64,000 bases of DNA from an uncultured beta proteobacterium (GCA_963734575.1 CAVTHT010000007.1:96549-160548); one strand, 5' to 3'. Shown: positions 1-64,000, counted from the first letter of the stretch. Notes: generated by a model not told the origin, from the letters alone. Made by a program: numbers and translations.

Positions 1-475
1 AACGTGGCGGAGCGTGGCTTCCACGACAACCCGCTGCTCGACGCGGTCGAGGCGCACGCGCGCAAGGAGGGCGCACCGGTGGTGCCGGTGTGCGCGTCCC
101 TCGAGGCGGAGATCGCCGATCTCGAAGGCGACGACAAGCTCGCCTTCCTCGCCGACCTCGGGCCTGTCCGAGCCCGGCCTCGATCGCGTCATCCATGCGG
201 GCTACAAGCTGCTCGGCCTGCAGACGTACTTCACCGCCGGACCGAAGGAAGTGCGCGCCTGGACGATCCACGTCGGCGACACCGCGCCCCAGGCCGCCGG
301 CGTGATCCATACCGACTTCGAGAAGGGCTTCATCCGCGCCGAGGTGATCGCGTTCGACGATTATCTCGCCTGCAAGGGCGAGCACGGCGCGAAGGATGCC
401 GGCAAGATGCGCCTCGAAGGCAAGGAGTACGTGGTGCGCGACGGCGACGTGATGCACTTCCGCTTCAACGTGTGA
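1..475 (+). CDS. ychF: Ribosome-binding ATPase YchF, 3' part (5' end outside window); apparent 1-bp frameshift near 165
   Basis: Frame 1 reads ...[51 protein letters not shown]. It then continues in frame 2 as [62 protein letters not shown]...MHFRFNV* (YchF/Obg-like C-terminal TGS domain). The frame change is at ctcgggcctg. Confidence 0.85.
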
Positions 476-943
476 TGACCCGGCGACGCACGCTGCTCGC
501 GCTCGGCGCCGCTGCGCTCGTCGCAGCCTGCGCCGCGCTTGCTCCGCGACCGTTGCCGCCGAAAGTCGAGGTCGATGGCGTGCGCCTCGTCATCGGCCCC
601 GCCGGCGAGCCACGCCTCGGCGTGCGCCTTGCCGTGGACAATCCCAACGCCTACGCGATATCCATCCAGAGCATCGATGCGACGCTGCGCGTGGAGGACG
701 TGCCGGTCGCCGTCGCGTTCCTTCCTGCTCCCGTGACCCTCGTCGCATCGGGCAGGACCAGCGTCGACGTCGAGGCGCGGCCGGACCCTGCTGCGTTGCG
801 GCCGCTGATCGAGCGCATGCTGCGCAGCCTCCGTGCCAGCGTACGAAGTCACGGGCTCGGCCGTGATCCAGTCGGGATGCGCGCTCGATTTCCACCGCCG
901 CGGCGAGCTGCCTCTCGCCGACCTTCTGGGGCGACTGCGATGA
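475..943 (+). CDS. Putative lipoprotein (LEA_2/NDR1-like fold?), start overlaps ychF stop, stop (TGA 941-943) overlaps dapF ATG; apparent frameshift near 840
   Basis: Lipoprotein signal [22 protein letters not shown] with lipobox LVAAC, followed by VEVDGVRLVIGPAGEPRLGVRLAVDNPNAYAISIQSIDATLRVEDVPVA. The C-terminus is recovered in the +1 frame as [33 protein letters not shown]. Confidence 0.5.
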
Positions 944-1805
944 GAACGCTGCGCTTCACCAAGATGCAGGGACTCGGCAACGACTTCGTGGTGCTCGACG
1001 GCATCGCGCAGCGCATCGAGCTCGATGCCGCGCGAGCTGCGGCGCCTTGCCGATCGGCGCTTCGGCGTCGGTTGCGACCAGGTGCTCCTCGTCGAGCGCC
1101 CGACCATTCCGGACGCCGACTTCCGCTACCGCATCTTCAATGCCGACGGCGGCGAGGTCGAGCAATGCGGCAACGGCGCGCGCTGCTTCGTGAAGTTCGT
1201 GCGCGAGCGCGGGCTCACGGACAAGCGCACGATCCGCGTCGAGACGGCCGGCGGCGTCATCACGCCCTCGCTGGGCGACGACGGCCTCGTGTCGGTCGAC
1301 ATGGGCGTGCCCGCGCTTCGAGCCGCAGGACATCCCGTTCGCCGCCGCCGCCGAGCGCGTCACGCACGCGCTCGATCTCGATGGCGAGCGCCTGGAGATC
1401 GGCGTCGTGTCGATGGGCAATCCGCACGCGGTCCAGGTGGTGCCCGACGTCGAGCGGGCGCCGGTGACGACGCAGGGTCCGCGCCTCGAGCGCGATGCCC
1501 GCTTCCCGCAGCGCGTGAATGCGGGTTACATGCAGATCGTCGATCGCGCTACCATTCGGCTGCGCGTATGGGAACGCGGTGCGGGCGAGACGCTCGCGTG
1601 CGGCACCGGCGCGTGCGCAGCGGTCGTGACGGGCATTCGACGTGGACTCCTCGACGCGCACGTGACGGTGCATACGCGCGGCGGCGTGCTGGCGATCGAC
1701 TGGGCAGGTCCGGGACACGGGGTGCGGATGACGGGACCCGCCGAAACGGTGTTCGAAGGCGAGTGGCCCATCGCTGCGCAATCTGCCCACAACGGAAGAG
1801 GATAG
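940..1805 (+). CDS. dapF: Diaminopimelate epimerase, requires two frame changes (about 1030 and about 1330)
   Basis: [21 protein letters not shown] in frame 1, then [21 protein letters not shown]...[18 protein letters not shown]...[20 protein letters not shown] in frame 2, then [19 protein letters not shown]...[10 protein letters not shown]...[11 protein letters not shown] in frame 3. Catalytic Cys motifs are present. Confidence 0.85.
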
Positions 1806-1814
1806 GACCACCGG

Positions 1815-2469
1815 ATGGATGCCGCAGCGGTTGCCGAATACCTGAAGCAGCACCCGCAGTTCTTCGAAGAGTACGCCGACCTGATGGCCGAGGTCTTCAT
1901 CCCGCACCCGCACGGCGGCCACGCGATTCCCATCGCCGAACGGCAGATCATCACGCTGCGCGAGCGCAACCAGGAGCTCGATCACCGCCTGCGCGAGCTC
2001 ATCCGCTTCGGCGGCGAGAACGATTCGATCAGCGAGAAGCTGCATCGCTCGACCCTCGCGCTCTTCGCGGCGCCGGATCTCGAGACGACGCTCGCGGTGC
2101 TGTACCAGAGCCTCACCGAGGATTTCGGCGTGCCGCAGGTCGCCTGCGCGGCTGTGGGGGAAGGTGCCGGAGCAGTCCTATCTGCCCGAGCTTGCCGCGA
2201 CGAGCCACGAGCTGCGCCAGTACACGGACCAGCTCGGCGCACCTTATTGCGGGCCGAACCCGCCGTTCGAGGCGCGCGACTGGTTCGACGACGGCGGCGC
2301 CTGCCAGTCGTTCGCGTTCCTGCCGCTGCGCACCGCGCACACGTTCGGTCTCCTGGGCCTTGCGAGCGACGATCCCGATCGCTTCTACGCCGGGATGGGC
2401 ACGATGTACCTGACGCGCCTCGCCGAGCTCGCGAGCGTCGCGACGGCGCGCTACCTGCCTCCGGCGTGA
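1815..2469 (+). CDS. DUF484-family protein (commonly found upstream of xerC); one frame change near 2160
   Basis: [59 protein letters not shown]...[18 protein letters not shown], then [47 protein letters not shown]...[21 protein letters not shown]. Confidence 0.7.
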
Positions 2470-3421
2470 CGGATTTCGACTGAGCATGAAGGGTGTGCGA
2501 CGCGGCAGGATCGCACGATGCGCCGCCGCCCGCAAGCCCGCGCAACGCGGCGCACGTCGCCGCCTTCGAGCAGCATCTCGCGACGCGTCCGGTGCACACG
2601 CGCAATGCCTACGTGCGCGACGTGCGCGAGCCTCGCGGTACTCGCCGGCGACGACGACATCGCGCACCTGAGCGGCGCGCAGGTGCGGCGCCTGCTCGCC
2701 ACGCTGCATGGTCGCGGTCTCTCCGGACGAAGCCTCGCGCGCACGCTGTCGTCGTGGCGCGCGTTCTACCGGCACCTGATCGAGACCGATCCGGCGGTGC
2801 GCGAGAACCCGTGCACCGGACTCAAGGCCCCGAAGGCGCCGCGACGCCTGCCCTCGGCACTCTCACCCGACGAAGCGGTCCAGCTCGTCGCCATCACCGG
2901 CGACGATGCGCTGGATGTCCGCGATCGCGCGCTGTTCGAGCTCGCCTACTCGTCGGGGCTGCGGTTGTCCGAGCTCGCGGGCCTCGACGTCGACCGCATG
3001 GATCTCGTGACGGGCGAGGTGCGCGTATGGGGCAAGGGCGCCAAGGAGCGCATCGTGCCGGTGGGCGCGCCGGCGCGCGAAGCCATTGCCGCATGGCTCG
3101 ACGACGCGCGACGCGCTCGTTGCGCCGGGGGAGACCGCACTCTTCGTCGGCCGGCAGGGACGGCGCATCACGACGCGCAGCATCGAGCGGCGGCTTGCGG
3201 ACTGGGCGGTGCGGCAGGGAATCGATCGTCACGTGCATCCGCACATGCTGCGACATTCGTTCGCGTCGCACGTGCTGCAATCGTCGGGCGACCTGCGCGC
3301 GGTGCAGGAGATGCTCGGCCACGCGAGCATCGCCAGCACGCAGGTCTACACCCATCTCGATTTCCAGTACCTCGCGAAGGCTTACGACGCGGCGCATCCG
3401 CGCGCGAAGAAACGCAAGTAG
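2470..3421 (+). CDS. xerC: Tyrosine recombinase XerC (N-terminal start uncertain; frame changes near 2630 and 3115)
   Basis: AAFEQHLAT...NAYVRDVRE / [49 protein letters not shown]...[25 protein letters not shown]...[14 protein letters not shown] / [77 protein letters not shown]. The R-H-R-Y catalytic residues are in context. Confidence 0.8.
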
Positions 3422-3437: not shown

Positions 3438-3965
3438 TCAGGCTGCAGGATCCTCGTCGAGGATGCGCAGCACGCCCGGAAGCCAGGGGAGGTCCGTCGG
3501 CCCCGGATCGATGCCGGCCTGCGACATCAAGGTCGTGAGCTGGCCGCGGTGATGCGTGCCGTGGTTGAAGAGATGGACCGCGGCGATGCTTGCGCGCACC
3601 TCACGCGTGCGGCCGTCGACCCGGCTGGTGTAGCGCAGCGACGAAGCCAGCCATTCGGGTGTGACGTTCGCCGCCCACTGCAGGATCGCCTGATCGGTGC
3701 TCGTGCGCTCCCGCGCGAGCGTGTCGAAGTCGTCGAACATGCCGCGGCCGAAATCGCCAACCAGGCACGGCTGTCCCATGAACCGGCCCAGCCACATGCG
3801 ATCGCCCCACAGCAGGTGATTCAGCGTGTCGTGCATCGAGCCGAAGAACGCGCCGCGATCGCGCTTGCGCTCCGCGTCGGGGAGCGCCGCGAGCGCCGCA
3901 TACAGCCGCTCGTTCATCCAGCGGTTGTACCGTGCCATGACGTGGCAGTACTCCGGCGCGATCAT
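3438..3965 (-). CDS. DinB-family (DinB_2 superfamily) protein, start codon overlaps gshA stop (ATGA)
   Basis: MIAPEYCHVMARYNRWMNERLYAALAALPDAERKRDRGAFFGSMHDTLNHLLWGDRMWLGRF...AAVHLFNHGTHHRGQLTTLMSQAG. The His-rich DinB_2 signature HLxxH...HHRGQ is present. Confidence 0.7.
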   Translation of the reverse strand: MIAPEYCHVMARYNRWMNERLYAALAALPDAERKRDRGAFFGSMHDTLNHLLWGDRMWLGRFMGQPCLVGDFGRGMFDDFDTLARERTSTDQAILQWAANVTPEWLASSLRYTSRVDGRTREVRASIAAVHLFNHGTHHRGQLTTLMSQAGIDPGPTDLPWLPGVLRILDEDPAA

Positions 3966-5236
3966 GCCGGGTTGGCGAGCTGCTCGACCTCGATGGCCGC
4001 GGCGAGCTGTGCCAGCCGGGCGATGACGCCGTACGCGTAGAAGCGGTTGGGCGGACATCCCGCGGGACCGGAGAGGTCGGGGATGCATGGCGTCTCGAAC
4101 GCGAGCGGCACGAACTGCGCACCCGGAGCGTTGAGGTTCTCGTCCTTGCCGCGCGACGTGTGCACGCGATAGAAGCCGCCCACGACGAACCGGTCGATCA
4201 TGTACACGACGGGCTCGGCGATCGCCTCGTTGATCGACTCGAACGTGGGCACGCCTTCCTGGATGATGACCGAGCTCACCTCGAGGCCTTCCTTCACGAC
4301 GGCCATCTTGTTGCGCTGCTTGCGGTTGAGCCCGGTCACTTCCGACGCATCGCGCACGGTCATGATGCCCATGCCGTACGTGCCGGCATCGGCCTTGACG
4401 ATCACGAACGGTTTCTCGCCGATGCCGTATTCCTTGTACTTCGCCTCGATGCGGTGGAGGAGCATCGCGACGTTGGACGCGAGGCATTCCTCGCCGGCGC
4501 GGTCCTGGAAGTTGATCTCCCCGCAGACGCCGAAGTACGGATCGATGAGCCAAGGATCGATGTCCAGGGTGTCGGCGAAGCGGCGCGCGACATCGCGATA
4601 GACGTGAAAGTGATGCGACTTCTTGCGGTTGTACCAGCCCGCCTCGAGCGGCGGCGCGATCGGCTGGTCGATGTCCTGCAGGATCGCCGGCGCACCCGAG
4701 GAGAGGTCGTTGTTGACCAGCACCATGCAGGGATCGAATCCCGCGGTGGCGACGCGGCGACCGTTGCGCACGATCGGTTCGAGCGTGATTGCGCTCCCGC
4801 CGTCGAGCTCGATGCGCGTGGGCTCCGTGATGTCCGGGATCAGCGTGCCGATGCGCACCCGCATGCCCGCCTGGCGCAGGATGCTCTCGAGCGTGGCGAC
4901 GTTGCGCAGGTAGAACATGTTGCGCGTGTGGTTCTCGGGAACGAGCAGCACGCCGCGCGCGTCGGCACAGACCCGCTCGACGGCCGCCTGCACGGCCTGC
5001 ACGCAGAGCGGCATGAACGCGCCGTTGAGATTGTTGAACCCGCCCGGGATACAGGTTGGTGTCGACCGGCGCCAGCTTGAACCCCGCATTGCGCAGATCC
5101 ACCGACGCATAGAAGGGGACCGCGTGCTCCTGCCATTGCGTGCGCAGCCAGCGCTCGATGTCGGGCATGCCGTCGAGAAAGCGCTGCTCGAGATCGAGCA
5201 GAGGCCCGGTGAGGGCAGTGGTGAGATGCGGAATCA
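3962..5236 (-). CDS. gshA: Glutamate--cysteine ligase (proteobacterial GshA type), one frame change near 5045 (cccggg run)
   Basis: MIPHLTTALTGPLLDLEQRFLDGMPDIERWLRTQWQEHAVPFYASVDLRNAGFKLAPVDTNLYPG / GFNNLNGAFMPLCVQAV...FVIVKADAGTYGMGIMTV...FYRVHTSRGKDENLNAPGAQFVPLAFE. Confidence 0.85.
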
Positions 5237-5740
5237 TGGCGCTCGGGAAAGCGTGGGATTGTAGCCGAAGCGAACATGCTCTCCGCGGCAGTGCGTGCTG
5301 CGCGACACTGCCCTGCTTGTTGATCCCGGCCGCCTGCGGGCAGTGCGACTCCCGCTTGCTCCGTTCGCCGCAACCATGCACTCCTGTGGGTGCCCGGCGC
5401 GCAGCAGGTCGTGACCCACCACTCCCTCTGCGCCGCGCCACCCACGACGGAGTGCGCGGCTCAAAGTCGCTGCGCGCGACTCGCTCCTGCCCGCATGCGC
5501 AGCGCTGTCGCTGCATCGTCGCTGGCGTTTGCGATGGGGCTGTGGCAATGGTGGACCTGACATCGATGCATCCGCGAGGCGATCGCTGCGGGGCAGGGCG
5601 ACGTTGGCGCAGTCGGTGCAGCGCGGGTGGCGAGCGCGCCGTCCGCTCGTGGGTTGAGCGGCGGTCCGCGAGCCGGGTACCCGCGCCACCGACACGGGTG
5701 CGCCACCCGGAGCCGGGCAACGCAGCGGTTGCCGAGCGCC

Positions 5741-9030: not shown

Positions 9031-9433
9031 ATGCTCAACACGCGTCCCCTCGATGAACTCGCTGCCCGCATCGGGCAGGCGTTCGAGAACAGCCCGGCCA
9101 AGGACATCGAGAAGAACATCAAGCAGCTCCTCAGCAATGGCCTCGCCCGGCTCGACGTCGTGCCCCGCTCGGAGTTCGACGTCCAGGCGCAGGTGCTCCT
9201 GCGCACGCGCGAAAAGCTCGAGGCGATGGAGCGCCGCCTCGCCGAGATGGAATCGCGGCTCGGCATGGGTGGCGGGCAATACATGAATGCGCAGGGCGGC
9301 ATGGGCCAGAGCTATGGCGGGCCCGCGGGCGGTGGTCCCATGGGCGGGGCCGGGATGAACGAGCCGCCGATGGGCGGGTCTCCTGGGCGGCGGCCCGGGC
9401 GGCCCGGGTTTCAATCCCGGCTCCGGCGGCTGA
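9031..9433 (+). CDS. ubiK: Ubiquinone biosynthesis accessory factor UbiK (BMFP/YqiC family) with Gly/Met-rich C-terminal tail; 1-bp frame change near 9378
   Basis: MLNTRPLDELAARIGQAFENSPAKDIEKNIKQLLSNGLARLDVVPRSEFDVQAQVLLRTREKLEAMERRLAEMESRL, then GMGGGQYMNAQGGMGQSYGGPAGGGPMGGAGMNEPPMGG. The tail completes in the +1 frame as GLLGGGPGGPGFNPGSGG*. Confidence 0.75.
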
Positions 9434-9479
9434 CCCGCGCACACCGAGCCATCTCATCCAATCGGCGGGCACCGGCGCC

Positions 9480-11006
9480 ATGGCGCTCGCCGTGCTGCAT
9501 TCGCGCGCCCTCGCGGGCGTGCACGCACCTCCGGTGGTCGTCGAGGTGCACCTCTCCGGTGGGCTGCCCGCCTTCAATCTCGTCGGCCTTCCCGATACCG
9601 AGGTGAAGGAGGCGCGCGACCGCGTCCGCGCCGCGCTGCACAACACGAACTTCGAATTCCCGGCGCGAAAAATCACCGTCAACCTCGCGCCGGCGGATCT
9701 TCCCAAGGAGTCCGGGCGGTTCGATCTGCCGATCGCACTGGGCATCCTGATCGCGACGGGACAGCTTCCTGCGCGCGGACTGGATGATTGCGAGTTCGCC
9801 GGGGAGCTCGCGCTGACGGGCGCATTGCGGGCGGTGCGCGGTGCGCTGCCGATGGCGATGGCCGCGCACCGTGCCGGACGCAGCTTCATCCTGCCGCTCG
9901 AGAGCGCGACGGAGGCAGGACTGGTGCGCGATGCCGCGGTGTTCGGTGCGCGTGACCTGCTGCAGGTGTGTGCGCACCTCGCCGGTGACGCACCGCTGCC
10001 GCCGCTCGAGCGCGCCGCCACCGCACCCGCAGCCGGTGCCGGTGAAGAGACCCGCGGCGACCTCGCGGACGTGCGCGGCCAGGCGCACGCGAAGCGCGCG
10101 CTGGTCATTGCCGCCGCCGGCGCGCACAGCCTGTTGATGATCGGTCCGCCCGGCACCGGCAAGACGATGCTTGCGCAGCGCCTGCCGGGAATCCTCCCGC
10201 CGCTTTCGGAGCACGAGTCGCTGGAGACCGCCGCGATCGCCTCGCTCGCGGGTCGATTCTCGCCTGCGCAATGGGGCGTGCCGCCGTACCGGGCGCCGCA
10301 TCACACCGCGAGCGCCGTCGCGCTGGTCGGTGGCGGTGGCGACCCGCGGCCGGGCGAGATCTCACTTGCGCATCACGGCGTGCTCTTCCTCGACGAGCTG
10401 CCGGAATGGGACCGTCGCGTGCTGGAGGTGTTGCGCGAACCCCTGGAGTCGGGCGAGATCCACATCTCGCGTGCCGCGCGCCAGAGCACGTTCCCTGCAC
10501 AGTTCCAGCTCGTCGCGACGATGAACCCGTGCCCGTGCGGCTGGCTCGGCCATCCGAGCGGTCGTTGCCATTGCACGCCGGACCAGGTGCATCGCTACCG
10601 TGCGCGCGTCTCCGGTGCGTTGCTCGACCGCGTCGACATGGGCGTCGAGGTGCCTGCCGTCGACGCGGACGTCCTCGCGGCCGCCGACGGTGATGCCGAC
10701 CGCGCGCTGACGTCAGAAGTCGCGCGCCGCGATGTCGGCTGCGCTCGCGCGGTCCAGCAGTCGCGACAGGGACGGCCCAATGCCCGCCTGCAGCCGCGCG
10801 ATGTGCAGCGCTGGTGTGCGCCCGACGCCGAGGCGAGCGTGGTGCTCGCCGCCGCGATGACGCGGCTGTCGCTGTCGGCGCGCAGCTACCATCGCGTGCT
10901 CAAGGTGGCGCGCACCATCGCGGACCTCGAAGCCAGCGGGACCGTTACGACGAGGCATGTCGCGGAAGCGCTGTCGTATCGCCGCTTCGAGCGCGCGGCA
11001 GCGTGA
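9480..11006 (+). CDS. comM: YifB/ComM family Mg-chelatase-like AAA+ ATPase
   Basis: MALAVLHSRALAGVHAPPVVVEVHLSGGLPAFNLVGLPDTEVKEARDRVRAALHN...DVRGQAHAKRALVIAAAGAHSLLMIGPPGTGKTMLAQRLPGILPPL...GVLFLDELPEW. The ORF is intact. Confidence 0.9.
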   Translation: MALAVLHSRALAGVHAPPVVVEVHLSGGLPAFNLVGLPDTEVKEARDRVRAALHNTNFEFPARKITVNLAPADLPKESGRFDLPIALGILIATGQLPARGLDDCEFAGELALTGALRAVRGALPMAMAAHRAGRSFILPLESATEAGLVRDAAVFGARDLLQVCAHLAGDAPLPPLERAATAPAAGAGEETRGDLADVRGQAHAKRALVIAAAGAHSLLMIGPPGTGKTMLAQRLPGILPPLSEHESLETAAIASLAGRFSPAQWGVPPYRAPHHTASAVALVGGGGDPRPGEISLAHHGVLFLDELPEWDRRVLEVLREPLESGEIHISRAARQSTFPAQFQLVATMNPCPCGWLGHPSGRCHCTPDQVHRYRARVSGALLDRVDMGVEVPAVDADVLAAADGDADRALTSEVARRDVGCARAVQQSRQGRPNARLQPRDVQRWCAPDAEASVVLAAAMTRLSLSARSYHRVLKVARTIADLEASGTVTTRHVAEALSYRRFERAAA

Positions 11007-11028
11007 TCACACGCCGCGCAGCGCCGGG

Positions 11029-12003
11029 TCAGTACACCCGAAACCTCGGCGCGTCGCCGTGCAGCAGCACGCGCTCGACGTTCTTCCAGGCCTCGCGAAA
11101 AAGGAATGCGGCGGACTGGCGCGTGACGCCCGCGATATGCGGCGTGAGCAGCAGACGATGCGCGGCCTCGCCGGTGAGTGAGAGCAAAGGGTTGTCGGCA
11201 GCTGGCGGCTCGGTGGCGTAGACGTCCACCGCGGCGCCGGAGAGTTTCCCTTCGGCCAGACGCGCCGCCAGGGCGCCCTCGTCGACGATGCCGCCGCGCG
11301 CCGCGTTGATCAGCACCGCGCCCGGTTTCATGCGCGACAGTGCCGCGCCATCGATCATGTTGCGCGTGTCCTCGAGCAGCGGCACGTGAAGCGACACGAT
11401 GTCCGCGGCGGCGAGGAGCGCGTCGAACGCCATGCGCTGCGCCCAGGCCGGGACGCTCTCGCCGGTCTCGCCTGCGGGGTCGTAGAACGCGATGCGACAC
11501 CCGGCACGATGGAACGCGTGCGCGACGGCCTTGCCGATGGTGCCCATCCCGACGATGCCCACGAGCAATCCTTCGAGGCCGCCCACGTTGTCGGTGATGA
11601 GGCGCGCGCGGAACGCGCTGTAGTTGCCGCTGCGGATCTCGTCGTTCGACCACGCAAAGCGGCGCAGGAGGGATGCCGCCGCCGTCACGGCGTACTCGGC
11701 GACGGCGTCGTTGCTGCCCCCGGGCACGTTGGCGACGGGTACGCCCTGCGCGACCAGCGCCGCGCGGTCGAGTCGATCGACCCCGGCGCCCGTGACCTGC
11801 ACCAGCGACAGTCGACCGCCCGCGAAGAGTTCCGCCCCAAGCTTCGGCCCGACGGCCGGCATCACGAGCGCCGCCACCTTGCGCATGAGCGCGGGCACGT
11901 CCGCATCGGCCGGCGCGCGGTAATGCACGTCGAGATCGAACGGTGGCGTGACGCCGACGCGAGCGAAGTCCGCGGCGGGACGCAGGCAAAGGACTTCCGG
12001 CAT
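11029..12003 (-). CDS. D-isomer-specific 2-hydroxyacid dehydrogenase (NAD-binding)
   Basis: GIVGMGTIGKAVAHAF (GxGxxG)...LLAAADIVSLHVPLLEDTRNMIDGAALSRMKPGAVLINAARGGIVDEGALAARL...TPHIAG. The catalytic R/E/H triad is in context. Confidence 0.8.
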   Translation of the reverse strand: MPEVLCLRPAADFARVGVTPPFDLDVHYRAPADADVPALMRKVAALVMPAVGPKLGAELFAGGRLSLVQVTGAGVDRLDRAALVAQGVPVANVPGGSNDAVAEYAVTAAASLLRRFAWSNDEIRSGNYSAFRARLITDNVGGLEGLLVGIVGMGTIGKAVAHAFHRAGCRIAFYDPAGETGESVPAWAQRMAFDALLAAADIVSLHVPLLEDTRNMIDGAALSRMKPGAVLINAARGGIVDEGALAARLAEGKLSGAAVDVYATEPPAADNPLLSLTGEAAHRLLLTPHIAGVTRQSAAFLFREAWKNVERVLLHGDAPRFRVY

Positions 12004-12392: not shown

Positions 12393-12393
12393 G

Positions 12394-14306: not shown

Positions 14307-14363
14307 TCGATCTCCCCGGTTCGCGTCGGGCGCGCTGGACGTCCCGGCGCGCTCAGTTGTAAT

Positions 14364-14373: not shown

Positions 14374-14376
14374 CGT

Positions 14377-15138: not shown

Positions 15139-15181
15139 GTCGCCGCGTTCCCGACCACGCACTCAACGACGAGGAGAAGCG

Positions 15182-46580: not shown

Positions 46581-46604
46581 ACCCAGCCCCCGCCAGAGGA
46601 CCAC

Positions 46605-49688: not shown

Positions 49689-49720
49689 CAACAACAACGT
49701 TTCATCACGGAGGAGAAGAC

Positions 49721-51014: not shown

Positions 51015-51098
51015 CGGCATGGAGCCCTGCGTGGCGCGCGCCGACGTCGCTGCGATGAAGCGGCGCGCGGTGATGCGCACGTCGCGCGCTTCCTGATC

Positions 51099-52020: not shown

Positions 52021-52845
52021 CGCCGCTCGACGCCTCGCCGCGCTGGATGCAGGCGCTGGAGACGACCGGCGCGTGGACGCTCGGTCTCCTCTGGATCCTG
52101 CCGCTCGCGTATGCGTTCTGGACGGCGTTCCATCCCGGCGAGTTCTCGACGCGCTTCGTGATCGATGCGCCCGTCGACCCTCGCCAACTTCGTCGCGGCG
52201 TGGCATGCGGCGCCGTTCGCGCGCTACTTCCTGAACACCGTGCTCCTCGTGAGCATGGTGCTCGCAGCGCAGCTCGTGCTCGTGACGCTCGCCGCCTATG
52301 CGTTCGCGCGCTACACGTTCCCGGGACGCGGCGTGCTGTTCGCGCTGGTGCTCGTGCAGCTCATGGTCATGCCCGACGTGCTGATCGTGGAGAACTATCG
52401 CACCATGGCGGCACTGGGTCTCAAGGACACGATCCTCGCCATCGGATTGCCTTACATGGCGAGCGCCTTCGGCATCTTCCTCTTGCGCCAGACGTTCAAG
52501 ACGGTGCCGCGCGAGCTCGACGAGGCGGCGCGGATCGAGGGTTGCAGCGCGCTGCAGGTGCTGTGGAAGGTGTACGTTCCGCTGGCCCGCCCGACGTACC
52601 TCGCGTACGCACTCGTCAGCGTGTCGTACCACTGGAACAACTTCCTGTGGCCGCTCATCATCACGAACTCGGTCGAATCGCGTCCGGTCACCGTGGGCCT
52701 GCAGGTGTTCTCCGCGACGGACCAGGGGATCGACTGGGCGATCATCACGGCCGCGACCTTGCTGTCGGTGGCGCCGCTGCTGATTGCTTTCCTGCTGTTC
52801 CAGCGGCAGTTCGTGCAGTCCTTCATGCGCGCCGGCATCCGGTGA
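52017..52845 (+). CDS. ABC transporter permease (UgpE/MalG-like), GTG overlapping previous stop; frame change near 52160
   Basis: LDEAARIEGCSALQVLWKVYVPLARPTYLAYALVSVSYHWNNFLWPLIIT (EAA motif region), and a C-terminal TM segment. Confidence 0.8.
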
Positions 52846-53948: not shown

Positions 53949-55003
53949 TCAGGACGACCTGCCCGTACGTGTAACACGACGGAGCAGGTGACGGAGCAGA
54001 CGGGGCAACCCGGAGCGTCCTCCGTCCGCCCTGAGCACCGAGATGTCGTCCTCGAGCTTGCACCGCCACGCTTCCGCTGCGGCGAGCGACTCCTCGCGGG
54101 CGGCGATGACCGCACGCATCTCCCCGATCTCGGCCTGCAATCCATCGCGCTGCCGTACCGCCTCGGCATGATGGCCCTGCCAGGCGGCGACTTCGCGATC
54201 CAGCGCGTTGCCACGCTCGTGCGCGGCATGCAGCGCGCTCGTCACCTTCTCGTAATCCCGGCGCACCCACTCCCCGGCATCGGCGAGCACGGACACCGTG
54301 CGTGGCACGTTCGGAGAGCGCAGCGGCGTCGTCGCTCGCCACCACGAGGAAGTACAGCGCACGGGCATGGCCGTCGCGACGTGTCGCAGCATCGTCCTCG
54401 CGCAACTCGAACAGCTCGCCGGCCGTCGCGTCCTGTTCCGGTGCGACCACGGAGAAGAAGCTCGCGTGCTGGCCGAACCATACGGCATGCGCGAAGCGTC
54501 GCGCGAGCATGGCTGCGAGCTCTTCGCGGTCGAGCTCGCGCACGTGAAAGGGATTGGCCGTGCCACGGGCCTCCGAGTATTCGCGCCGGTTGGGACACGA
54601 CAGGACGAGCAGGCCTCCCGGCCGGAGCACGCGGCGGATCTCGTCGAGGAACGCGTCCTGCGCCGCGATGTGCTCGAGGGTCTCGAACGACACGACGGCG
54701 TCGAACGCCTGATCGGGCAGGGGCAGGGCGCGCGCAGTCGCCGAGCTCGAAACGCAGGTTCGGCTGCGCGCCGTAGTGCGCGCGTGCATGCGCCACGGCG
54801 TCGGGCGCGATGTCCACGCCGGTGACGGATGCGGCATGGCGCGCGAGCAGCGCGCTGCCGTAGCCCGCGCCGCAGGCCACGTCGAGCACGTGGCGGCCGG
54901 CGACCAGCGCCGCAGCGAGGTGATAACGATGCCAGTGCTCGTACCAGATCTCGCCGGCAACGCCCGGCACGAACCGCTCGCCGGTGAACGGGAGATCCGT
55001 CAC
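53949..55003 (-). CDS. Class I SAM-dependent methyltransferase with C-terminal coiled-coil extension; GTG start overlapping upstream stop; at least two frame changes (about 54300, about 54730)
   Basis: VTDLPFTGERFVPGVAGEIWYEHWHRYHLAAALVAGRHVLDVACGAGYGSALLA...GVDIAPDAVAHARAHY / ...LPDQAFDAVVSFETLEHIAAQDAFLDEIRRVLRPGGLLVLSCPNRREY / ...DYEKVTSALHAAHERGNALDREVAAWQGHHAEAVRQRDGLQAEIGEMRAVIAAREESLAAAEAWRCKLEDDISVL. Confidence 0.7.
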
Positions 55004-56837
55004 GGCGTCGCGCGCCGCCCGGTCAGCAGGCGCCGCAACGGGCCGCGCCACGCCGCGACATGGGCGAGCCACGGCCGCAGCATCACGAACCGGCGCACGT
55101 CCTGGCGGCTCACCAGCACGAGCGACTGCGTGCGCATGTACGTCTCGGCCATGCGCGAGATGTCGTACGGCGACAGCGTGAGGCGCATCGCGCGCTGGCG
55201 CTCGACCGCGTCGCGGTAGGCGAGGTCGAGCAGCTCCTGCCGGCCGGCGGCTTCCTTGGCGCCCGCCGGGACGCGGTACTTGGACGTGGTCTTCTCGACC
55301 AGCACGAACTCGTGCTCGAGCGAGTAGCGGGTCCACAGGTTCCAGTCCTCGAGCTGGTCCATGTCCTCGGCGAAGCCGCCGTACGTCTCGTACAGGCTGC
55401 GATGGAACAGCACCGCCTGGATCGGCAGGTAGTTGTGATGCCACAGCGTCAGCCGGTCGAACGGCTGGCGGTGCTGCGTGATGTGCGCGATCTCCGCCAG
55501 CCGGCCGCTCGTCCCGTCGATCACATGGGTGTGCGTCTCCCACGAGAGGCCGTACGCGCCCTTGAGCCCGCGCTCGCGCACGGCGTCGAGCAGCACCTCG
55601 ACGTGATCGGCGAAGAGCACGTCGTCATCGTCGAGGAAGTTCAGCCATTCGCCGCGCGCCGCGGCGAGCGCGAGGTTGCCGGCGCGCGCGCGTCCCACGC
55701 GGTGGCCGGTCGCGCCGATAGTGGATGCGCAGGCGATCGCGGAAGCTGTCGACACCGCTTGCGAGCGCGGCGGTCCGTCCTCGATCACGACCGCCTCGAC
55801 GTCGCGGCCAGGTCTGGTTGGCGACGCGATTCGAGCGCCTGGCGCAGCGATGCGGTACGTCCGATGGTGCGGATCAGGATCGAGACGAGCGGTCCGTCGC
55901 GGCGCGGCTCCTCGCGACGCGAATGCATCGCGACGAAGGCGCCGTCGCGGCGCAACTCGTAGCTCCAACCGTTGAACACCGGGTGAAACGTCTCGGTCGG
56001 CCGCACCCTGGTCGACGCGAACTGCGGCCAGCTGCCGCACGAAGCGCAGACAGCGCCCGCAGCAATCCGCGCCGGCGGCGCGGAAATTCCGGCGGCGCGA
56101 GCGATCTCGGCGAGCACCATCGAGATGCCCTGCAGCGTGCGCCCGACGCCGCCGTAGCGCGCGCGCAGGCACAGGTTCGTTTCCACGCCGCCCAGGACCT
56201 GCAGCGGCTTGACTTCGCCCGCATGCCGATACGTGCGATGCACGACGGCGAAGCGCGGCACGTAGCGCAGCGCGGTGTCCCGCGGCGCGCAGTCGCCACG
56301 ACAGATCCACGTCCTCGCCGTACATGAAGATGCGCGGATCGAACCCGCCCACACCCTGGTACGCGCTGCGACGGAAGAGCACCGCGGCGCCGCTCACCCA
56401 CGGCGTGTCGAGCGTCACGGGGTCGTAGGCCTTCGGGTGCTCGTAGGGGATCTGGCGGAGCTCCCACGCGGCGACCTCGGGTGCGTCGCGCTCTGCGGTC
56501 GCGACGAGCTTCCGCGAGCACGGACGGCTCGAGGATGCAGTCCTGGTTGAGCACGAGGAGCCACGGCGAGGCGCCGCTCGCGGCGTTGGCGTTGTGGCCG
56601 CGGCCGAAGCCGATGTTGCTGGTGCGGCGGCCGCACCGTGACGCTGGCGAAGGCCTTCCCGTCGCGCAGTGCCGGCAGCGCCTCGATCCGCGCGACGGCC
56701 GCGCCTCTTCGGCGTGTTGTCGAGCACGTACAGGTGCACCTCAGGCCGCTGCTCTGCTCCGCGACGCTGCGCAGGAGCGCTTCGAGCAGCGCGTCGTCGG
56801 GGGCGAACGTGACGATGCTGACGTCAACGGCGGCCAC
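55000..56837 (-). CDS. Two-domain family-2 glycosyltransferase (tandem GT2), multiple frame changes
   Basis: GT2 domain 1: VDVSIVTFAPDDALLEALLRSVAEQ...HLYVLDNTP...YDPVTLDTPWVSGAAVLFRRSAYQGVGGFDPRIFMYGEDVDLSWRLRAAGH. GT2 domain 2: VSILIRTIGRTASLRQALES...WLNFLDDDDVLFADHVEVL...EDWNLWTRY. The segments lie in different frames. Confidence 0.65.
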
Positions 56838-58288
56838 GGCTCGCCCAGCGCCGCAATGCGCGGCGCACCAGCTGCGGGAGCTGCGCGAAGGCAGCCGTGT
56901 CCTGCGCCATCCGTTCGACCCTGCCGGCAAGCTCCGCGGTCGTGCGATCGCGCGCCTGCAGCTCGGCATTCAGCGCAGCGACGTCGCCTTCGAGCTTCGC
57001 CGCCCACTGTCTCCCCGCGTCGACATCGCCCTGCAGCTTCGCGGCCCATGCGTGGGATGCCGCCACGGTCGATTGCGCCGCTTGCAGCGCTTCGCAGAGC
57101 TGCACGAGCTCCTGCCGGAACGCAAACCCATCGAGGTTGGTGGCGAGCAGCCGCTGCAGGCGTAGCGTCGAGGACGTCAGCCGGCGCGCCCTGTGCCGAC
57201 TCGAGATCGAACTGCGCGTAGAGCGCGCCGATGGCATCGGCCATCGCGCCGAGCGGAGGAACGACGGAGGGATCGTCGGACACGATGGCCGATTCTACGC
57301 GGGCCCGCTCGCTGCGCCCGTCCGTCGAGCAGGTCGCCGATCAGGCGCGCGGCCGTTGCGCCGTCGAAGCCCGGGGGCAGCACCCAGCCACCGCCATGGG
57401 CGCGAACGCGTGCGCCAAGCGCGCCCTCGTCCGGCACGATGACCGGTATGCCGGCGGACCACACCTCCGACAGCGTGTAGCTGAAGCTCTCGGGGATGCG
57501 ATTCGGGAACAACGCGAGCGACGGTCGGTACGCTGCGAGCCATCCGGGAAGGTCGTCGTCCGCGTACGGGCCGTGCACGAAGAGCCCGCGCGCGAGCCAG
57601 CCCTGCAGCAGCCGCTCGTCGGTGTAACCGATCACGACGAGCGCCGCATCGTGCTCGGCAATGGCGGTCGGCGACACTGCGCAGCAACGTGCTGCCCTTG
57701 TGCGGGCCGACCGCACCCACGACGGCGATCACGTGCCGCGGGGCCTGCTCGACGAACGCCGCCGGCGCGTCGCGCGAATGCGGCGCCCGATGCGGCACGC
57801 CCGGCGCAATGACGGTCACGGGCACGTCCGGCATCCAGGCCCGCATCTCGGCGCGGATGTATTCCGATGGCGCGATCACCGTGCGTGCGCGCCGCAGCGT
57901 CCTCCGCACCTCACCGATCCACGCGACATCCGGCGTGCCGACCGAAGCACCGGCGAAGAGCGCCGGGTGCAGGAAACCGAGATCGTGCAGGGTCGCCACC
58001 ACGCCGACCGTGCCATCGTGGGCGAGGACGGCCTCGGCGCGTTCGCGCGCGCGCCGGTCGACGCTGTGGAGATGGACGAGGCGTGTGCCGGTGGCCGCCA
58101 GCTGCGGTCGCGGCGTTGCCCGGCGCGAGCGGCCAGTAGCGTCGCGCCGCGAGGTCTTCCAGCACGTCGATGTCCGCGCCGACGTGCAGCGCGAGGTGGC
58201 GTCCCGGGACCGCCGCCGCCACGTCGCGGATGTAGCGATCCACGCCGCCGCCGGGCGCGGACGTGATGTGCAGCACGGCGCCGGTCAT
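56824..58288 (-). CDS. GT4-like glycosyltransferase with C-terminal coiled-coil tail; multiple frame changes
   Basis: MTGAVLHITSAPGGGVDRYIRDVAAAVPGRHLALHVG... / HVIAVVGAVGPHKGSTLLRS / ALVVIGYTDERLLQGWLARGLFVHGPYADDDLPGWLAAYRPSLALFPNRIPESFSYTLSEVWSAGIPVIVPDEGALG / C-terminal LQRLLATNLDGFAFRQELVQLCEALQAAQSTVAASHAWAAKLQGDVDAGRQWAAKLEGDVAALNAELQARDRTTAELAGRVERMAQ. Confidence 0.6.
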
Positions 58289-58400
58289 GTTCTTGGGCGG
58301 GATGGGACGACGGGCCAGGCAAGTATATGCGTGCGCGGCCGCGCGCCGGCCGTTCGCCTAGAATGGCGGGGCCGCAGGGCTGCAGCGCGGCCAACTCCCC

Positions 58401-61400
58401 ATGCTTTCCGGATCCAAGCCCCCGAACGTCACCTTCGACGCCGCCTTGTGCACGGCGCGCCTGTCGCCGCGCACCCACGTGCTGTTCGTCAGCCACGGCT
58501 GGGGCGGCGGCGTGCAGCGGCACATGGACGATCTCGCTGCGCTGATCGCCGACGCTTGCGACGTGATCCGGCTGGTGCCGGGCCCCGGGGGCACCGTGCG
58601 CGTGGAGATCGGCGGCGCGCACGGCGCCGCGCGCGCCTATTTCGCGTTGCCGGCGGAGAGCGAGACGCTGCTCGCCCTGCTGCGCAGCGTCGGCATCGCA
58701 CGCGTCCACTTCCACCACGTGCACGGGTTGCCGCGCGCCGTGCTGGACCTGCCGCGCCAGCTCGGCGTCGCGTACGACGTCACGCTGCACGACTATTACG
58801 CGCTGGATCCGCGTCCCGTGCGCGACGGTGGCGCGCCGCGCGAGGACGACGCGGCCAGCCCCGACGACGACATGCCCTGGGAGCTGTCCCTCGAGGAATG
58901 GCGCACCGTCTTCGGCACGTTCCTGCGTGGCGCTGCGCGCGTGATCGCGCCGTCGCACGATGTCGAAGAGCGTTATCTGCGCGCATGGCCGGATCTCGCG
59001 TTGCAGGTCCGCGCCCACCCGGAGCCGGCCGCGTCGCCCATGCGGGCGATCGTCCGCGTGGTGGCGCCCGGCCGCATCTCGCCGGCGAAGGGGTTGCACG
59101 TCATCGTCGCCTGCGCGCTGCATGCGCGCGCCAACGACCTGCCGCTCTTCTTCCGCATCCTCGGCAGCACGACCGAGCCGGTGGTGCAGGCGCCGTCGGT
59201 GCCGCTGAGCGTGTCCGGCGAATATCCCGAAGACGCCCTGCACGCGCTGCTGGCGGCCGAACGGCCGGACGTGATCATGCTGCCGACGCAGGTGCCGGAA
59301 AGCTACGGCTATGTGCTCTCCGCGGCGATCGCGTCCGGCGTGCCGATCGTCGCCTCCGCGCTCGGCGCGTACATCGAGCGCCTGGCGGACGTCCCGGGTG
59401 CAACGATGCTGCCGCACGATGCGCCGCCCGCGGCATGGAACGAGGCTCTGCTTCGCGTCGCGGACATCCCGCGACGTGCGCCCGGGGAGCCAGTCCGGAC
59501 GGGATCGTCACCGGAGGACTACGGCGCGTGGTACCTGGAGCCGTTGGCGGGAACGACGGCCGAGCGCGGTCCCGAGATCACCCTCGACGCGCGTCATCTC
59601 GCCCTGCCGCGCGGCGACGTCGATCAGGAGCCGCTTTCGCTCGCGGAGCTGTATCGCTATGGGGTGGAATGCGGGCAGCTGGAAGCGCGCACCGAGCTCG
59701 TGCGGCGCCTCGACGACATCGAGACGGAGCGTGCCGAGCTCGTCGCGCTGCGCGAGGCGGCGCTCGCCGAGCACGAAGCTGCGCAGTCGCGCGTGGAGCA
59801 GGCCGAGCATGCATTGCGCGTGTCGCACGCGCGCATCCAGGAGTTCGAGCATTCGACGTCCTGGCGCCTCACCGCCCCCGTGCGCACCGTCGGACGCCGG
59901 TGGAAGCTGCTGCAGGCGCGGTTCCGCGCAACGTATGCGACGGCCCGGCACGTCCCGCGCCAGGCGGACATCGCGCGTACGATCCTGCGCGATCACGGTG
60001 CGGCTGCGCTGTGGACGCGCGTGCGGAACAAGCTCTCCGGCAAGCGCCGCTACCGGCCGCCGGTCGTGACGCGCTATGCGCAGGAGATCGCTGCCGGCCC
60101 GCTGACGTTTCCCCCGATGGCTCCCGCGGGCCTGCGGGCGTCGATCGTCATCCCGGCGTTCGGCGATCCGCTGCTCACGTTCACCTGCCTCAAGAGCATC
60201 GCCGCGCATACCCCGGCCGGCCGCTACGAGGTCGTCGTGGTGGACGATGCGTCGCCGCAGCCGGTGGCGGAGGCTCTGCGCGAAGTGCACGGCATCTGCG
60301 TCGAGCGCAACGCCGTCAACCTGGGCTTCATCGCGAGCTGCAATCGCGGCGCCGAGCTCGCGCGGGGCGAAGTCCTCGTATTCCTCAACAACGACACCAT
60401 CGTCACGGCCGGCTGGCTGCAGGCGATCCTGCAGACATTCGAGCGTCGCCCGCACACGGGCCTCGTCGGCGCGAAGCTCGTCTATCCGGACGGCCGCCTG
60501 CAGGAGGCCGGCGGCATCGTGTGGCGCGACGGCTCGGCGTGGAACTACGGACGCGACGAGGATCCGGAGCGGCCCGAGCACAACTACGTGCGCGAGGTCG
60601 ACTACTGCTCCGGCGCCTGCATCGCCATTCCCTGCTCGCGTGTTCCGCGCCGTCGGCGGCTTCGACGTGCGCTATGCGCCGGCGTACTACGAGGACACCG
60701 ACCTCGCCTTCGCCGTGCGCGCGGCCGGACGCAAGGTCGTGTACCAGCCGCGCGGCGACCATCGTGCATTTCGAGGGACAGACCGCGGGACCGATCTCGA
60801 TGCAGGCATGAAGCAGCACCAGGTGGTCAACCAGCGCCGCTTCGCCGAGAAATGGGGTGCGACGCTGGCCGCGCACCGCGCCAACGGCATCGAGCCGCAC
60901 GCTCGAGCACGATCGCTGGGCGCGGCACCGCGTGCTGGTCATCGACGCCTGCATGCTGACGCCGGACCAGGATTCCGGGCTCGGTGCGCATGCAGGCCGT
61001 GCTCGAGCTCGCTGATCGAGCTGCACTGCAAGGTCGACCTTCGTCGCCGACAGCCTCGAGCACCGCGAGCCCTACGTCGGCGACCTGCAGCAGCGCGGCG
61101 TCGAGGTTCTCTTCCATCCGTACGTGCGCAGCGTGCCGGCGCTGCTCGCCGAGCGCGGCGAGGAGTTCGACGTCGATCGTGCTGTCGCGCCACTACATCG
61201 CCAACAAGCACGTCGAGACCGTGCGCACGTTCGCACCGCAAGCCCTGCTCGTGTTCGACACCGTGGACCTGCATTTCCTGCGCGCGGAGCGCCTCGCGGA
61301 GCTCGAGGGCGGCGCGATGGCGAAGGCAGCCGCGCGGGCCAAGCGCGAGGAGGAGCTCGCCCTCATCCGCCGGGCCGACGTCACGCTGGTCGTGAGCGCC

Positions 61401-62072
61401 GATCGAGCGGGATCTCCTCGCGGAGCTCGCCCCCGAGGCGCGAGGTGCGCAGTCCTTTCGAACATCCACGAGCCGATGCCGATCGGCAAGCCGTTCGCGG
61501 ATCGCGAGGGCCTGGTGTTCATCGGCGGGTTCCAGCATCCGCCGAACACCGACGCCATGCTGTGGTACGCGCAGGACGTGCTGCCGCACGTGCGCCGGCT
61601 GCTGCCCGGCGTGCGGACGTACGTCATCGGCGCCGATGCGCCGGCCACGATTCGCGACCTCGCCGCCGAGGATTTCGTCGTGACCGGGCACGTGCCCGAC
61701 GTCGCGCCGTATTTCACCCGGGCGCGTGCGTCGATCTCGCCGCTGCGCTACGGCGCGGGCGTCAAGGGCAAGGTGAACCTGGCGCTGAGCTACGGCGTCC
61801 CGGTCGTGGCCACCACGCCGTCGATCGAGGGCATGCATCTCACGCCGGGAGCCGACGTGCTCGTCGCCGACACGGCGGAAGCGTTCGCCGACGCCATCGC
61901 GCAGGTGTATCGCGACGAGATGCTGTGGCACCGCATGTCCGATGGCGGCCGCGCCATCATCCGCCAGCACTTCTCGCGCGACGTCGCGCGTGCGGCACTG
62001 GCGGCGCTCCTCGCCCGGGCGCACCGCCGCGCACCGCCAGCACCCGCCGAAGGAGCTCGTCAGCGCCGAGTG
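58401..62072 (+). CDS. Very large multi-domain glycosyltransferase (GT4-like - coiled coil - GT2 - GT4), about 1200 aa; at least 5 frame changes between 60640 and 61450; 3' end approximate
   Basis: N-terminal domain: [16 protein letters not shown]...[22 protein letters not shown]. Coiled coil: [78 protein letters not shown]2 domain: [41 protein letters not shown]...VFLNNDTIV...[10 protein letters not shown]-terminal GT4 domain: [28 protein letters not shown]...[32 protein letters not shown]. Confidence 0.65.
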
Positions 62073-62717
62073 AAGAGCAGGTCGCGCACGCCGTGGCCCA
62101 GGCCCAGCCCGCGCTTCTCGAACTTCGTCAGGGGACGCCACGCCGGGCGCTCCGCAAAGTCGCTCGCGGTGTTGGCGAGCAGCGTCTCCGCGCTCAGCGT
62201 GACGAGGATTTCCTGCGCGTATTCCTCCCAGTCCGTGGCGACGTGCAGCACGCCTCCGGGTGCGAGTCGTCGCGCGAGCTCGTGCACGAAGCCCGGCTGC
62301 AGGAGACGCCGCTTGTGATGGCGCTTCTTCGGCCACGGGTCGGGAAAGAACACATGCACCCGGTGGAGGCTGCCGTCGGGGATCATCTGCGCGACGACCT
62401 CGACGGCGTCGTGCTGGATGACGCGCAGGTTGGTGAGATCGCGCGCCTGCGCGATGGCGCATAGCAACGCGCCCACGCCCGGCGCATGCACTTCGACGCC
62501 GAGGAAATCGGTGGCGGGCTGTTCGTGCGCGATGGCGACCGTCGTTTCGCCCATGCCGCAGCCGATCTCGAGCACGACCGGCGCACGCCGGCCGAACAGC
62601 TCGCCGAAGTCGAGCGGCCGCGGCGCGTAGTCGACGCCGAAGCGCGGCCAGAGCGCGGCCAGCGCATGCGCGCTGTGCGGGCGACATGCGACCCTGGCGC
62701 AGCACGAAGCTGCGCAC
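62060..62717 (-). CDS. trmB: tRNA (guanine-N7)-methyltransferase TrmB (N-terminal start uncertain; frame change near 62640)
   Basis: [14 protein letters not shown] / [87 protein letters not shown]...[23 protein letters not shown]...ATDWEEYA. Confidence 0.8.
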
Positions 62718-62780
62718 GGAGCGATGCGGCCGCGATCGTTGGTGGCGGCGCCGCCGCGGAATCGCGCAGCGTCGGGCGGA

Positions 62781-63453
62781 TCAGGGCTGCGCAACGCGGC
62801 CCCACCCGGGCTCGTCCAGGCGCCGCTCGAGCGTACGCCCCGAGCTCTCGGCCGCACGTGTGTACTCGAGCTCGAGCGTGTCGGCGGATTTCCACCGCAC
62901 GCTCGCGTCGCTCCACGGCTCGGGCGGCGTCCACAACGCCTCCTTGCGCACGCCGTCGCGCGTCACGCGCCAGACCGCGAGCTGGTTGCTGCAGTTCTGC
63001 GGAGCAGAAGTCGGCGGTGGCGATGCGCTGGCGGTCCGGTGCGAGCTTCGGTTCGGCCGGCACCTCGAAGCTGCGCCCGGTCGCGCGCTGCAGCAGCACG
63101 AATGACGCGTCGTCGCCCTGCGTCGCGTAGATGACGGCCATGTTCACGCTGTCGAGGTAATCCCACAGCGCGTACGAGCGGCCGCCGTCGGGCGCCATGC
63201 TGTCCTTGAAGGTCGCCTCGCCGCTCGGATAGAGCGTGACGCGGAGGGTGTCGCCGTCGCGCGTCGCGAGACTGGGCAGGCGCTTCAACTGCACTTCCTC
63301 GACCCGCCGGCCGCAATGCGCGAGGCCCTCGGCGCCGTCGCACGCGCTGGCGACCTCCTGCGGCGTGAGCGCCACGGCGCCCGCGGGCGCGACGTGCAAT
63401 GCGAGGAGAAGCGCCGCGACGGCGAAGCGCGCGGCGCGGTCGGGCGCGCGCAT
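62781..63453 (-). CDS. Secreted hypothetical protein (signal peptide); frame change near 62990
   Basis: [151 protein letters not shown] / ...[63 protein letters not shown]. Confidence 0.5.
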
Positions 63454-63455
63454 CC

Positions 63456-64000
63456 TCAGGAGCGGGCGATCAGCCCGGCCGTGGGGGAGCTGGGGCTGCC
63501 CTCGTAGAGCTTTCGCGGCATCCGGCCGGCGAGGAAGGCCTCGCGGCCGGCCTCGACGGCGAGACGCATCGCGCGCGCCATGCGCACCGGGTCTTTCGCC
63601 AGCGCGATCGCCGTGTTCATCAGCACGCCGGCGCAGCCGAGCTCCATGGCGATGGCCGCGTCCGAGGCCGTGCCCACGCCGGCGTCGACGAGCACCGGCA
63701 CCTTCGCCTGATCGATGATGAGGCGCAGGTTCCAGGGATTGAGGATGCCCATGCCCGAACCGATGAGCGAAGCGAGGGGCATGATGGCGACGCAGCCGAT
63801 CGCCTCGAGCTCGCGCGCGGCGATCGGATCGTCCGACGTGTACACCATCACGTCGAAGTCGTCGCGCACCAGCACCTCGGCGGCCTTCAGCGTCTCGCGC
63901 ACGTTCGGGAACAGCGTCTGCTGATCGCCGAGCACCTCGAGCTTCACCAGGCGATGTCCGTCCAGGAGCTCCCGCGCGAGCCGCAGCGTGCGAATGGCTT
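63456..64000 (-). CDS. thiG: Thiazole synthase ThiG, C-terminal part (5' end outside window)
   Basis: [114 protein letters not shown]. Confidence 0.85.

Follow-up and report, generated by a model that had tools for sequence, protein, structure and literature searches.

In the assembly of Trypanosoma brucei Lister 427, collapsed alleles gave rise to indel errors, and apparent frameshifts were gone after phasing (Cosentino et al. 2021, PMC8445201). The same assembly contains low-heterozygosity regions caused by recombination (PMC8445201). Metagenome assemblies of the metaFlye type represent a species-level consensus in which strain-collapsed and strain-resolved segments alternate, and the Strainy preprint gives single-nucleotide polymorphism (SNP) densities of 0.015-0.99% per metagenome-assembled genome (MAG) (bioRxiv 10.1101/2023.01.31.526521). 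Errors of the sequencing process have been profiled as well: a Thermus thermophilus PacBio assembly carried 2,927 deletions against 1 insertion, located in G/C runs (PMC8574707), and the errors of Nanopore assemblies are mostly homopolymer indels (PMC11232133). Here we examine 64,000 nucleotides from an uncultured beta proteobacterium (GCA_963734575.1, CAVTHT010000007.1:96549-160548; the whole stretch is called the window below, and positions are counted from its first letter), in which many conserved genes can be read only by changing frame. We argue that these frame breaks are an assembly artefact, probably left by a consensus that merged closely related strains.

Twenty-seven genes of the window need frame changes, and a frameshift-aware alignment places at least 57 insertions and 3 deletions in them, each of a single base. 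An earlier note on this DNA had spoken of about 40 genes. Every gene it listed is indeed affected, close to the position it gave, but the total is 27 genes with about 60 events, and its junctions understate the events: lipA and gph have two each, a glycosyltransferase gene with two GT2 domains (the GT2-GT2 gene) has 12, and the gene of a 1220-aa glycosyltransferase has 11. Our references were a sister contig (ENA ERZ25039554 contig_27829, 500,587 bp, about 84% DNA identity), three stretches of which cover 1-48.5 kb of the window, and three MAG contigs (GCA_039915505.1, GCA_030946875.1 and GCA_030155865.1) that span 46-64 kb including the glycan locus. In these relatives all 27 affected genes are single open reading frames (ORFs). 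When the stitched ("repaired") translations were compared with NCBIfam models, YchF, DapF, XerC, GshA, GcvP, DadA, LipB, LipA, ApaG, Rpe, Gph, TrpE, TrpG, TrpD, TrpC and a substrate-binding protein each gave a single full-length match across the junctions. In tblastn alignments the window copies are split over frames in the order 1>2>3>1 on the plus strand and -1>-2>-3>-1 on the minus strand.

Frame switches were first traced with a dynamic programme based on codon usage, which found many of them. A composition-based frame path alone mistakes gene boundaries for frameshifts and made a false detour in amtB; homology was therefore added, and the events were placed by tblastn and frameshift-aware protein-to-DNA alignment against the intact orthologues from the four related assemblies. 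Blastn with cheap gaps gave many compensating gap pairs, and only uncompensated gaps were counted. The main event statistics use 53 insertions (+1) and 2 deletions (-1); later alignment added 4 and 1, respectively. The null for the codon and run tests consisted of simulated random insertions that were localised by the same procedure and aligner. One candidate event was discarded, in xerC at 2501-2504 (residue 6), where an in-frame ATG makes a frame change needless. Another, a -1 that the L082 reference had suggested at the beginning of the gene of the substrate-binding protein, was reread as a +1 at about 49790 with the longer L084 protein.

It is conceivable that the affected genes are real, very recent pseudogenes in a decaying genome. 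The extra bases do stand in the deposited sequence, and the public gene calls are truncated. The public protein collection holds exact fragments of the contig's gene calls, plus the intact 1273-aa oxidase; the GshA call (P0256) has 350 aa (5014-3965) compared with 424 aa in relatives, and the GcvP call (P0369) has 552 aa compared with 983 aa in the sister assembly, as the earlier note had foreseen when it warned that annotation would fragment these genes. However, about 60 frameshifts are accompanied by no in-frame stop in 5,259 aligned codons, and conservation downstream of the breaks is undiminished (87-98% amino-acid identity in conserved genes). Central genes of biosynthesis and housekeeping are hit (dapF, lipA, lipB, trpEGDC, gcvP, rpe, ychF) while less conserved genes are spared, and the orthologues are without the extra base at every site. 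Insertions outnumber deletions by about 19 to 1; bacterial genome decay is marked by a deletion bias. Nor can mutation target silent codon positions, which is where most events lie (see below). We find it scarcely credible that these are pseudogenes, and the view that the breaks are assembly errors is upheld by the intact orthologues, the absence of stops and the identity past the breaks. In our reading the genes only look broken because the extra bases are a consensus artefact, and they would be intact in the organisms.

The direction of the events is strongly skewed, with 53 of type +1 and 2 of type -1 (p = 8.6e-14). The earlier note had described a single extra or missing base in the cases it inspected; nearly all of the events are extra bases. 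A comparison of 33-48.5 kb with the sister DNA gave the same direction: all uncompensated intragenic gaps were 1-bp insertions in the window. Of 31 cases in which the inserted base was unambiguous, 29 had a G or a C. A strand bias of this base was considered as a signature and dropped, the G:C ratio of 19:10 on the plus strand and 16:13 on the sense strand being unconvincing. The claim that the events lie mostly at G/C homopolymer runs could not be sustained, since only 9 of the 53 insertions are readable as run extensions, compared with 37-46% expected from the simulated random insertions. These nine are also compatible with a doubled third codon position.

These figures bear on the cause that the earlier note had proposed, namely ordinary stochastic indels of long-read or flow chemistry: wrongly counted homopolymers, or noise from low coverage, in the draft of a single strain, the patchiness being driven by coverage. 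Long-read assemblies are notorious for errors that are mainly indels and break genes apart (PMC8574707, PMC11232133, PMC13543314), and some of our events do adjoin GG or CC runs. The sister assembly also has a split gene: in contig_27829, peptidyl-tRNA hydrolase (pth) is divided into parts of 92 aa and 110 aa, the second offset by +1 (L085 19597-20191, minus strand), which suggests the same kind of error at a far lower rate, about 1 in 65 kb. However, extensions of homopolymers are depleted in the window rather than enriched, and high-GC PacBio data show deletions in G/C runs, the opposite of the direction seen here (PMC8574707). Random errors can neither favour codon position 3 and synonymous readings nor mirror the C<->G substitution class. 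Homopolymer chemistry or random low-coverage indels do not fit events that are insertion-only, run-depleted and specific to a codon phase, and we consider them an unlikely source.

The codon phase is the most telling property of the events. In 52 of the 55 events, the four-base codon at the site (CTCG, CGCG, GTCG, GCGC, TCGC, TATC, GAAG, CAAG, GGAG, CTTC, ATTC, GCCA and others) follows the pattern N1N2XY, where X≠Y; the third position is doubled into two different bases. Both readings are synonymous in 46 of the 55, compared with a null of 43-52% (p = 1e-6 to 5e-10); this null is already high because the aligner can choose where to put the 4-nt block. An independent placement by DNA identity pinned 24 sites to one base. 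Codon position 3 was touched in 22 of them (p = 0.005), and 19 were synonymous doublets, where 38-47% would be expected (p = 0.001). The doublets are C/G in 39 of 52 cases. This exceeds the share of C<->G among the substitutions between window and sister (p = 1e-5), even though C<->G is the commonest difference between the two (45% of substitutions; 71% of those at position 3). Transition doublets are under-represented (6/52 vs 38%, p = 2e-5); A/G, C/T and A/C doublets are present as well. New CpG steps are more frequent than expected (19/53, with 12-16% expected). We had considered them as the primary signature, but the effect, although real, follows from the C/G doublets at the third codon position. 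A sequencer or a mutational process is blind to silent codon positions, so the sites are best read as real, mostly synonymous polymorphisms. By the same argument, only selection acting on real variation recognises such positions, which would make the doublets strain variants.

The excess of G, C and CpG could also point to base modification, with a methylated C outside CpG being called as "CG" by a nanopore basecaller whose training data were mostly CpG-methylated DNA. The inserted bases and the enrichment of new CpG steps would agree with this, as would the two unrelated +1 sites at 46461 and 52176, which have the same nine bases downstream, ACCCTCGCC. However, no shared recognition motif was found around the sites, and CACCCTCG, the k-mer as it reads before the insertion, occurs without an event at 38222, 59579 and 51723 (minus strand), all inside event-rich regions; the events at this k-mer are not a deterministic k-mer error. 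Doublets of A/G, C/T and A/C do not fit a modified cytosine either, and methylation is blind to codon phase and synonymy. We regard a modification artefact as very improbable.

Even less probable, and in our judgement next to nil, is that the extra bases are real and decoded, through systematic +1 ribosomal frameshifting or removal of a base from the transcript at third-position doublets. Nearly all events are +1 and the downstream frames are fully conserved, as such decoding would demand; if it were true, the expression of dozens of essential genes would depend on a +1 correction acting throughout. Yet there is no shared shift-site sequence, stop codon or rare codon at the sites, and no orthologue carries the extra base at any of them. 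Moreover, the density of events reaches 6 per kb in one gene, while 27 kb of the same contig have none.

The distribution of the events is uneven, as had been noticed before, with an index of dispersion of 4.0 per 4-kb bin (chi-square p = 2e-7). Two stretches are free of events, 9.4-28.1 kb (18.7 kb) and 29.8-38.1 kb (8.4 kb), together 27 kb, and the glycan locus is the richest part. The genes said to be unaffected (16.4-24.4 kb, amtB, comM, the minus-strand operon and the GGDEF-EAL gene) proved intact by tblastn and alignment. How important a gene is does not govern the patchiness: trpD is affected at 98% identity to its orthologue, and yyaL, at 82%, is spared. If strain polymorphisms were merged, the unevenness would stem from strains that diverge more in some tracts than in others, either in place of coverage differences or in addition to them.

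The explanation we favour, and hold to be likely, is that the breaks are an assembly artefact: a consensus that collapsed at least two closely related, co-occurring strains would have written both alleles in tandem. For such a strain-collapsed long-read metagenome consensus we infer two read populations, a long-read origin and a polisher mechanism of the following kind. At a single-base difference between strains, the consensus would keep both alleles as adjacent bases instead of one. Most such sites would be C<->G transversions at silent third codon positions, and each doubled site would add one base and break a reading frame that is intact in the organisms. A maximum-likelihood long-read polisher would expect dropped bases far more often than C<->G substitutions; "CG" would then score higher, at the cost of one cheap deletion per read, than "C" or "G", either of which would call for a rare substitution in half of the reads. 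Transition differences would resemble common read errors and be resolved to one allele. Stretches in which the strains are identical, or in which only one strain was assembled, would carry no breaks, and the most strain-variable part, the glycan locus, would carry most. The tandem-allele model would account for the avoidance of runs, because the two alleles differ, and for the excess of new CpG steps. It would likewise account for the insertion-only direction, the lack of nonsense codons, the undiminished conservation downstream and the patchiness. The affected genes are intact in relatives, the codon signature resembles polymorphism (as judged from codon statistics, not reads) and the density changes tract by tract, which is the pattern of a collapsed consensus.

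Several points weigh against this interpretation. The two alleles at each site were not seen directly, the support coming from codon statistics and not from reads. The only pointer to a Flye-style long-read origin is the name of the sister contig in the ENA assembly, contig_27829; it fits the Flye contig naming used in large Nanopore soil surveys (PMC12313526). With a synonymous-doublet null that already stands at about half, the excess is strong but not absolute, and 9 of the 55 events are not synonymous doublets. The three one-base deletions need a separate explanation. Finally, we found no paper on the exact signature of both alleles in tandem, in bacterial MAGs or for a named polisher, and a literature search for an insertion-biased error mode of Nanopore R10.4.1, Medaka or Flye yielded none with this signature.

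We next list the individual events, beginning with those upstream of the first event-free stretch. The window begins inside ychF, whose 3' part (1-472, plus strand) has a +1 at 157-160 (CTCG; CTC/CTG, Leu). Between ychF and the following gene, the sister genome carries a gene for a Calx-beta protein of 1023 aa (L085 15180-18251) that is absent from the window (about 472-511). The genes that follow are also on the plus strand: an LEA_2 lipoprotein gene (511-943) with a +1 at 835-838 (GCCA; GCC/GCA, Ala), dapF (940-1805) with +1 events at 1030-1033 (GCGC) and 1307-1313 (GTGC / CCC[G]), a yigA-like DUF484 gene (1815-2469) with one at 2145-2148 (TGCG), and xerC (2486-3421) with two, at 2625-2628 (CGCG) and 3097-3100 (CTCG). 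On the minus strand, gshA (3965-5237) has a +1 at 5043-5051 (TAT|C or CCC|G). In ubiK (9031-9433, plus strand), whose ATG is at 9031, a +1 falls within the Gly-rich tail, somewhere from about 9378 to 9400; both the conserved C-terminal PGF..GSGG and the TGA stop at 9431 stand in frame +1 with respect to that ATG.

The first event-free stretch (9401-28126, 18.7 kb) holds comM, a minus-strand catabolic operon, gntR, tctC, the gene of the 1273-aa oxidase, a FimW-like gene, yyaL, a cytochrome c gene, gcvT, gcvH and the 5' half of gcvP. The intact 1273-aa product (16412-20233) is a fusion protein with DUF3683, an FAD-binding oxidase, Fe-S and CCG domains and DUF3400. It is 93% identical to its orthologue on the sister contig and is the best-conserved long gene of this stretch. 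In gcvP itself (26741-29682, plus strand), +1 events occur at 28127-28138 (GCTG) and 29400-29404 (CGCG), and dadA (29682-30936, end approximate, plus strand) has one at 29775-29778 (CAAG; CAA/CAG, Gln). The second event-free stretch (29779-38128, 8.4 kb) comprises the rest of dadA, the GGDEF-EAL gene, dacA, dat, a flavin reductase gene, cfa and a DUF493 gene.

Beyond it, events resume in lipB (38048-38720, plus strand; +1 at 38129-38133, GAGC) and lipA (38720-39702, plus strand; 39428-39433, CTCG, and 39477-39480, CGCG). The minus-strand gene apaG (41269-41650) has a +1 at 41389-41392 (GGCG). On the plus strand, rpe (41688-42387) has one at 41970-41973 (TCGC; TCG/TCC, Ser), and gph (42383-43095) has two, at 42659-42662 (CGAC, a second-position doublet, CGC/CAC) and 42723-42726 (GCGC).

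The affected trp genes are all on the plus strand: trpE (43257-44734) has +1 events at 44011-44016 (T[A]TC) and 44380-44385 (GAAG; GAA/GAG, Glu), trpG (45985-46593) at 46267-46271 (CGCG), 46400-46403 (GGAG) and 46458-46461 (CGCG), trpD (46605-47637) at 46995-47000 (CTCG) and trpC (47675-48479) at 48131-48134 (CTCG). Between trpE and trpG lies an nhaA antiporter gene (44731-45978), as on the sister contig. In GCA_030946875.1 (L083), this slot is occupied by a DUF1003 gene and a histidine-kinase-like gene instead of nhaA, and it appears to be a variable position within the trp cluster. Downstream of trpC, the sister has about 6 kb before the gene of an ATP-binding cassette (ABC) ATPase (L081 15424-21074), with three small ORFs, a MalT-like regulator and a Toluene_X porin; this insertion is absent from the window (48480-48597). 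Three ABC importer genes on the plus strand are affected. The gene of the substrate-binding protein (49720-51014) has a +1 at about 49790-49793, so that its signal peptide (MFSSLLARVIAGVALLVAM...) and mature part lie in different frames. Permease 1 (51093-52020) has a +1 at 51789-51792 (CTTC; CTT/CTC, Leu) and permease 2 (52047-52845) at 52173-52176 (GTCG).

In the glycan locus, a methyltransferase gene on the minus strand (53952-55015) has +1 events at 54297-54300 and 54726-54733. The GT2-GT2 gene (55003-56834, minus strand; 608 aa in L083) has ten +1 events, at 55714, 55801-5, 55826, 56031, 56051, 56102, 56271, 56512, 56630 and 56710, and two -1 events, at 55751 and 56743, with a density of up to 6.6 per kb. 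Its counterpart in L083 (11961-13787, minus strand) had been called as a glycosyltransferase of 371 aa, since the gene caller took an internal start; the full 608-aa ORF with its two GT2 domains exposed five further events in the window, at 56.1-56.85 kb. The next gene, for a GT4 glycosyltransferase with a coiled-coil tail (56803-58294, minus strand), has +1 events at 57163-57170, 57317-57320, 57669-57672 and 58084-58108.

In the gene of the multidomain glycosyltransferase of about 1220 aa (58401-62072, plus strand), ten +1 events (60627-39, 60751-5, 60895-901, 60974-80, 61008-11, 61033-36, 61172-76, 61395-402, 61438-41 and 61445-52) and one -1 (60785) are confined to 0.85 kb (60.6-61.45 kb), with none in the first 2.2 kb (58.4-60.6 kb). 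Such a tract boundary inside a gene is what one would expect of a recombination mosaic between strains. The three -1 sites of the window (55751, 56743 and 60785) show two-base codons, TC, CT and GC, where the relatives have ATC, CAG and TCG, and all three fall in the most event-dense part of the locus. The last two affected genes are on the minus strand: trmB (62063-62687) with a +1 at 62666-62669 (GCAT; GCA/GCT, Ala), and the gene of a secreted hypothetical protein (62784-63420; 212 aa in L082) with one at 63000-63004 (TCCG / TG[C]T).

The window has a G+C content of 69% and is part of a public metagenome contig of 352,548 bp held by NCBI and ENA. Judging by its genes, which are closest to Casimicrobiaceae (Burkholderiales) MAGs, the organism is a Casimicrobiaceae-like betaproteobacterium. 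The relatives were found via homologous proteins and members of protein clusters; a YyaL scan of genome contigs gave only 63% identity at best. The protein collection yielded no sequence of the same species, its best matches being TrpE (92% identical), GshA (90%) and EEP (85%).

The window encodes no new biology: its genes are of ordinary kinds and almost certainly intact. Annotating the window would yield about 27 false pseudogenes in 64 kb. If the proposed mechanism is right, the same fault should occur in other strain-collapsed long-read MAGs, especially in high-GC genomes with dominant silent C<->G differences, and polishing without short reads would not remove it, since the polymorphism is real. 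The four-base codon N1N2XY with synonymous readings could then serve as a read-free diagnostic that tells merged-strain artefacts apart from noise at homopolymers and from real pseudogenes. In addition, the doublets would mark positions at which the co-assembled strains differ.

Among known systems, bacterial prfB has one conserved +1 shift site with an in-frame stop and an upstream Shine-Dalgarno-like element, conserved across species. Programmed frameshifting of this kind resembles the events described here in the one extra coding base and the conserved downstream frame, but the window has about 60 unrelated sites, none of which is found in orthologues. The homopolymer errors of PacBio continuous long reads (CLR) and Nanopore reads (ARAMIS, PMC8574707; PMC11232133) are similar in that single-base indels truncate the proteins of many genes at high GC. 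However, 71-99% of those errors lie in runs, and in high-GC genomes they are G/C deletions, whereas the window has insertions that are run-depleted and codon-phase-specific. For assemblies of the metaFlye type, the Strainy work treats collapse as lost variation and not as a source of frameshifts, and an origin of the window's contig from such an assembler is presumed; these assemblies would share with the window the suppressed strain SNPs and the alternating segments, and their SNP densities of 0.015-0.99% fit the event densities seen here. T. brucei Lister 427 is a diploid eukaryote sequenced with PacBio, unlike the window, a bacterial metagenome contig with presumably mixed strains, and an extra silent third-position base with a C/G bias was not described there. 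What the two would have in common is that allelic merging gives rise to indel errors and apparent frameshifts, and that these appear in a patchy pattern.

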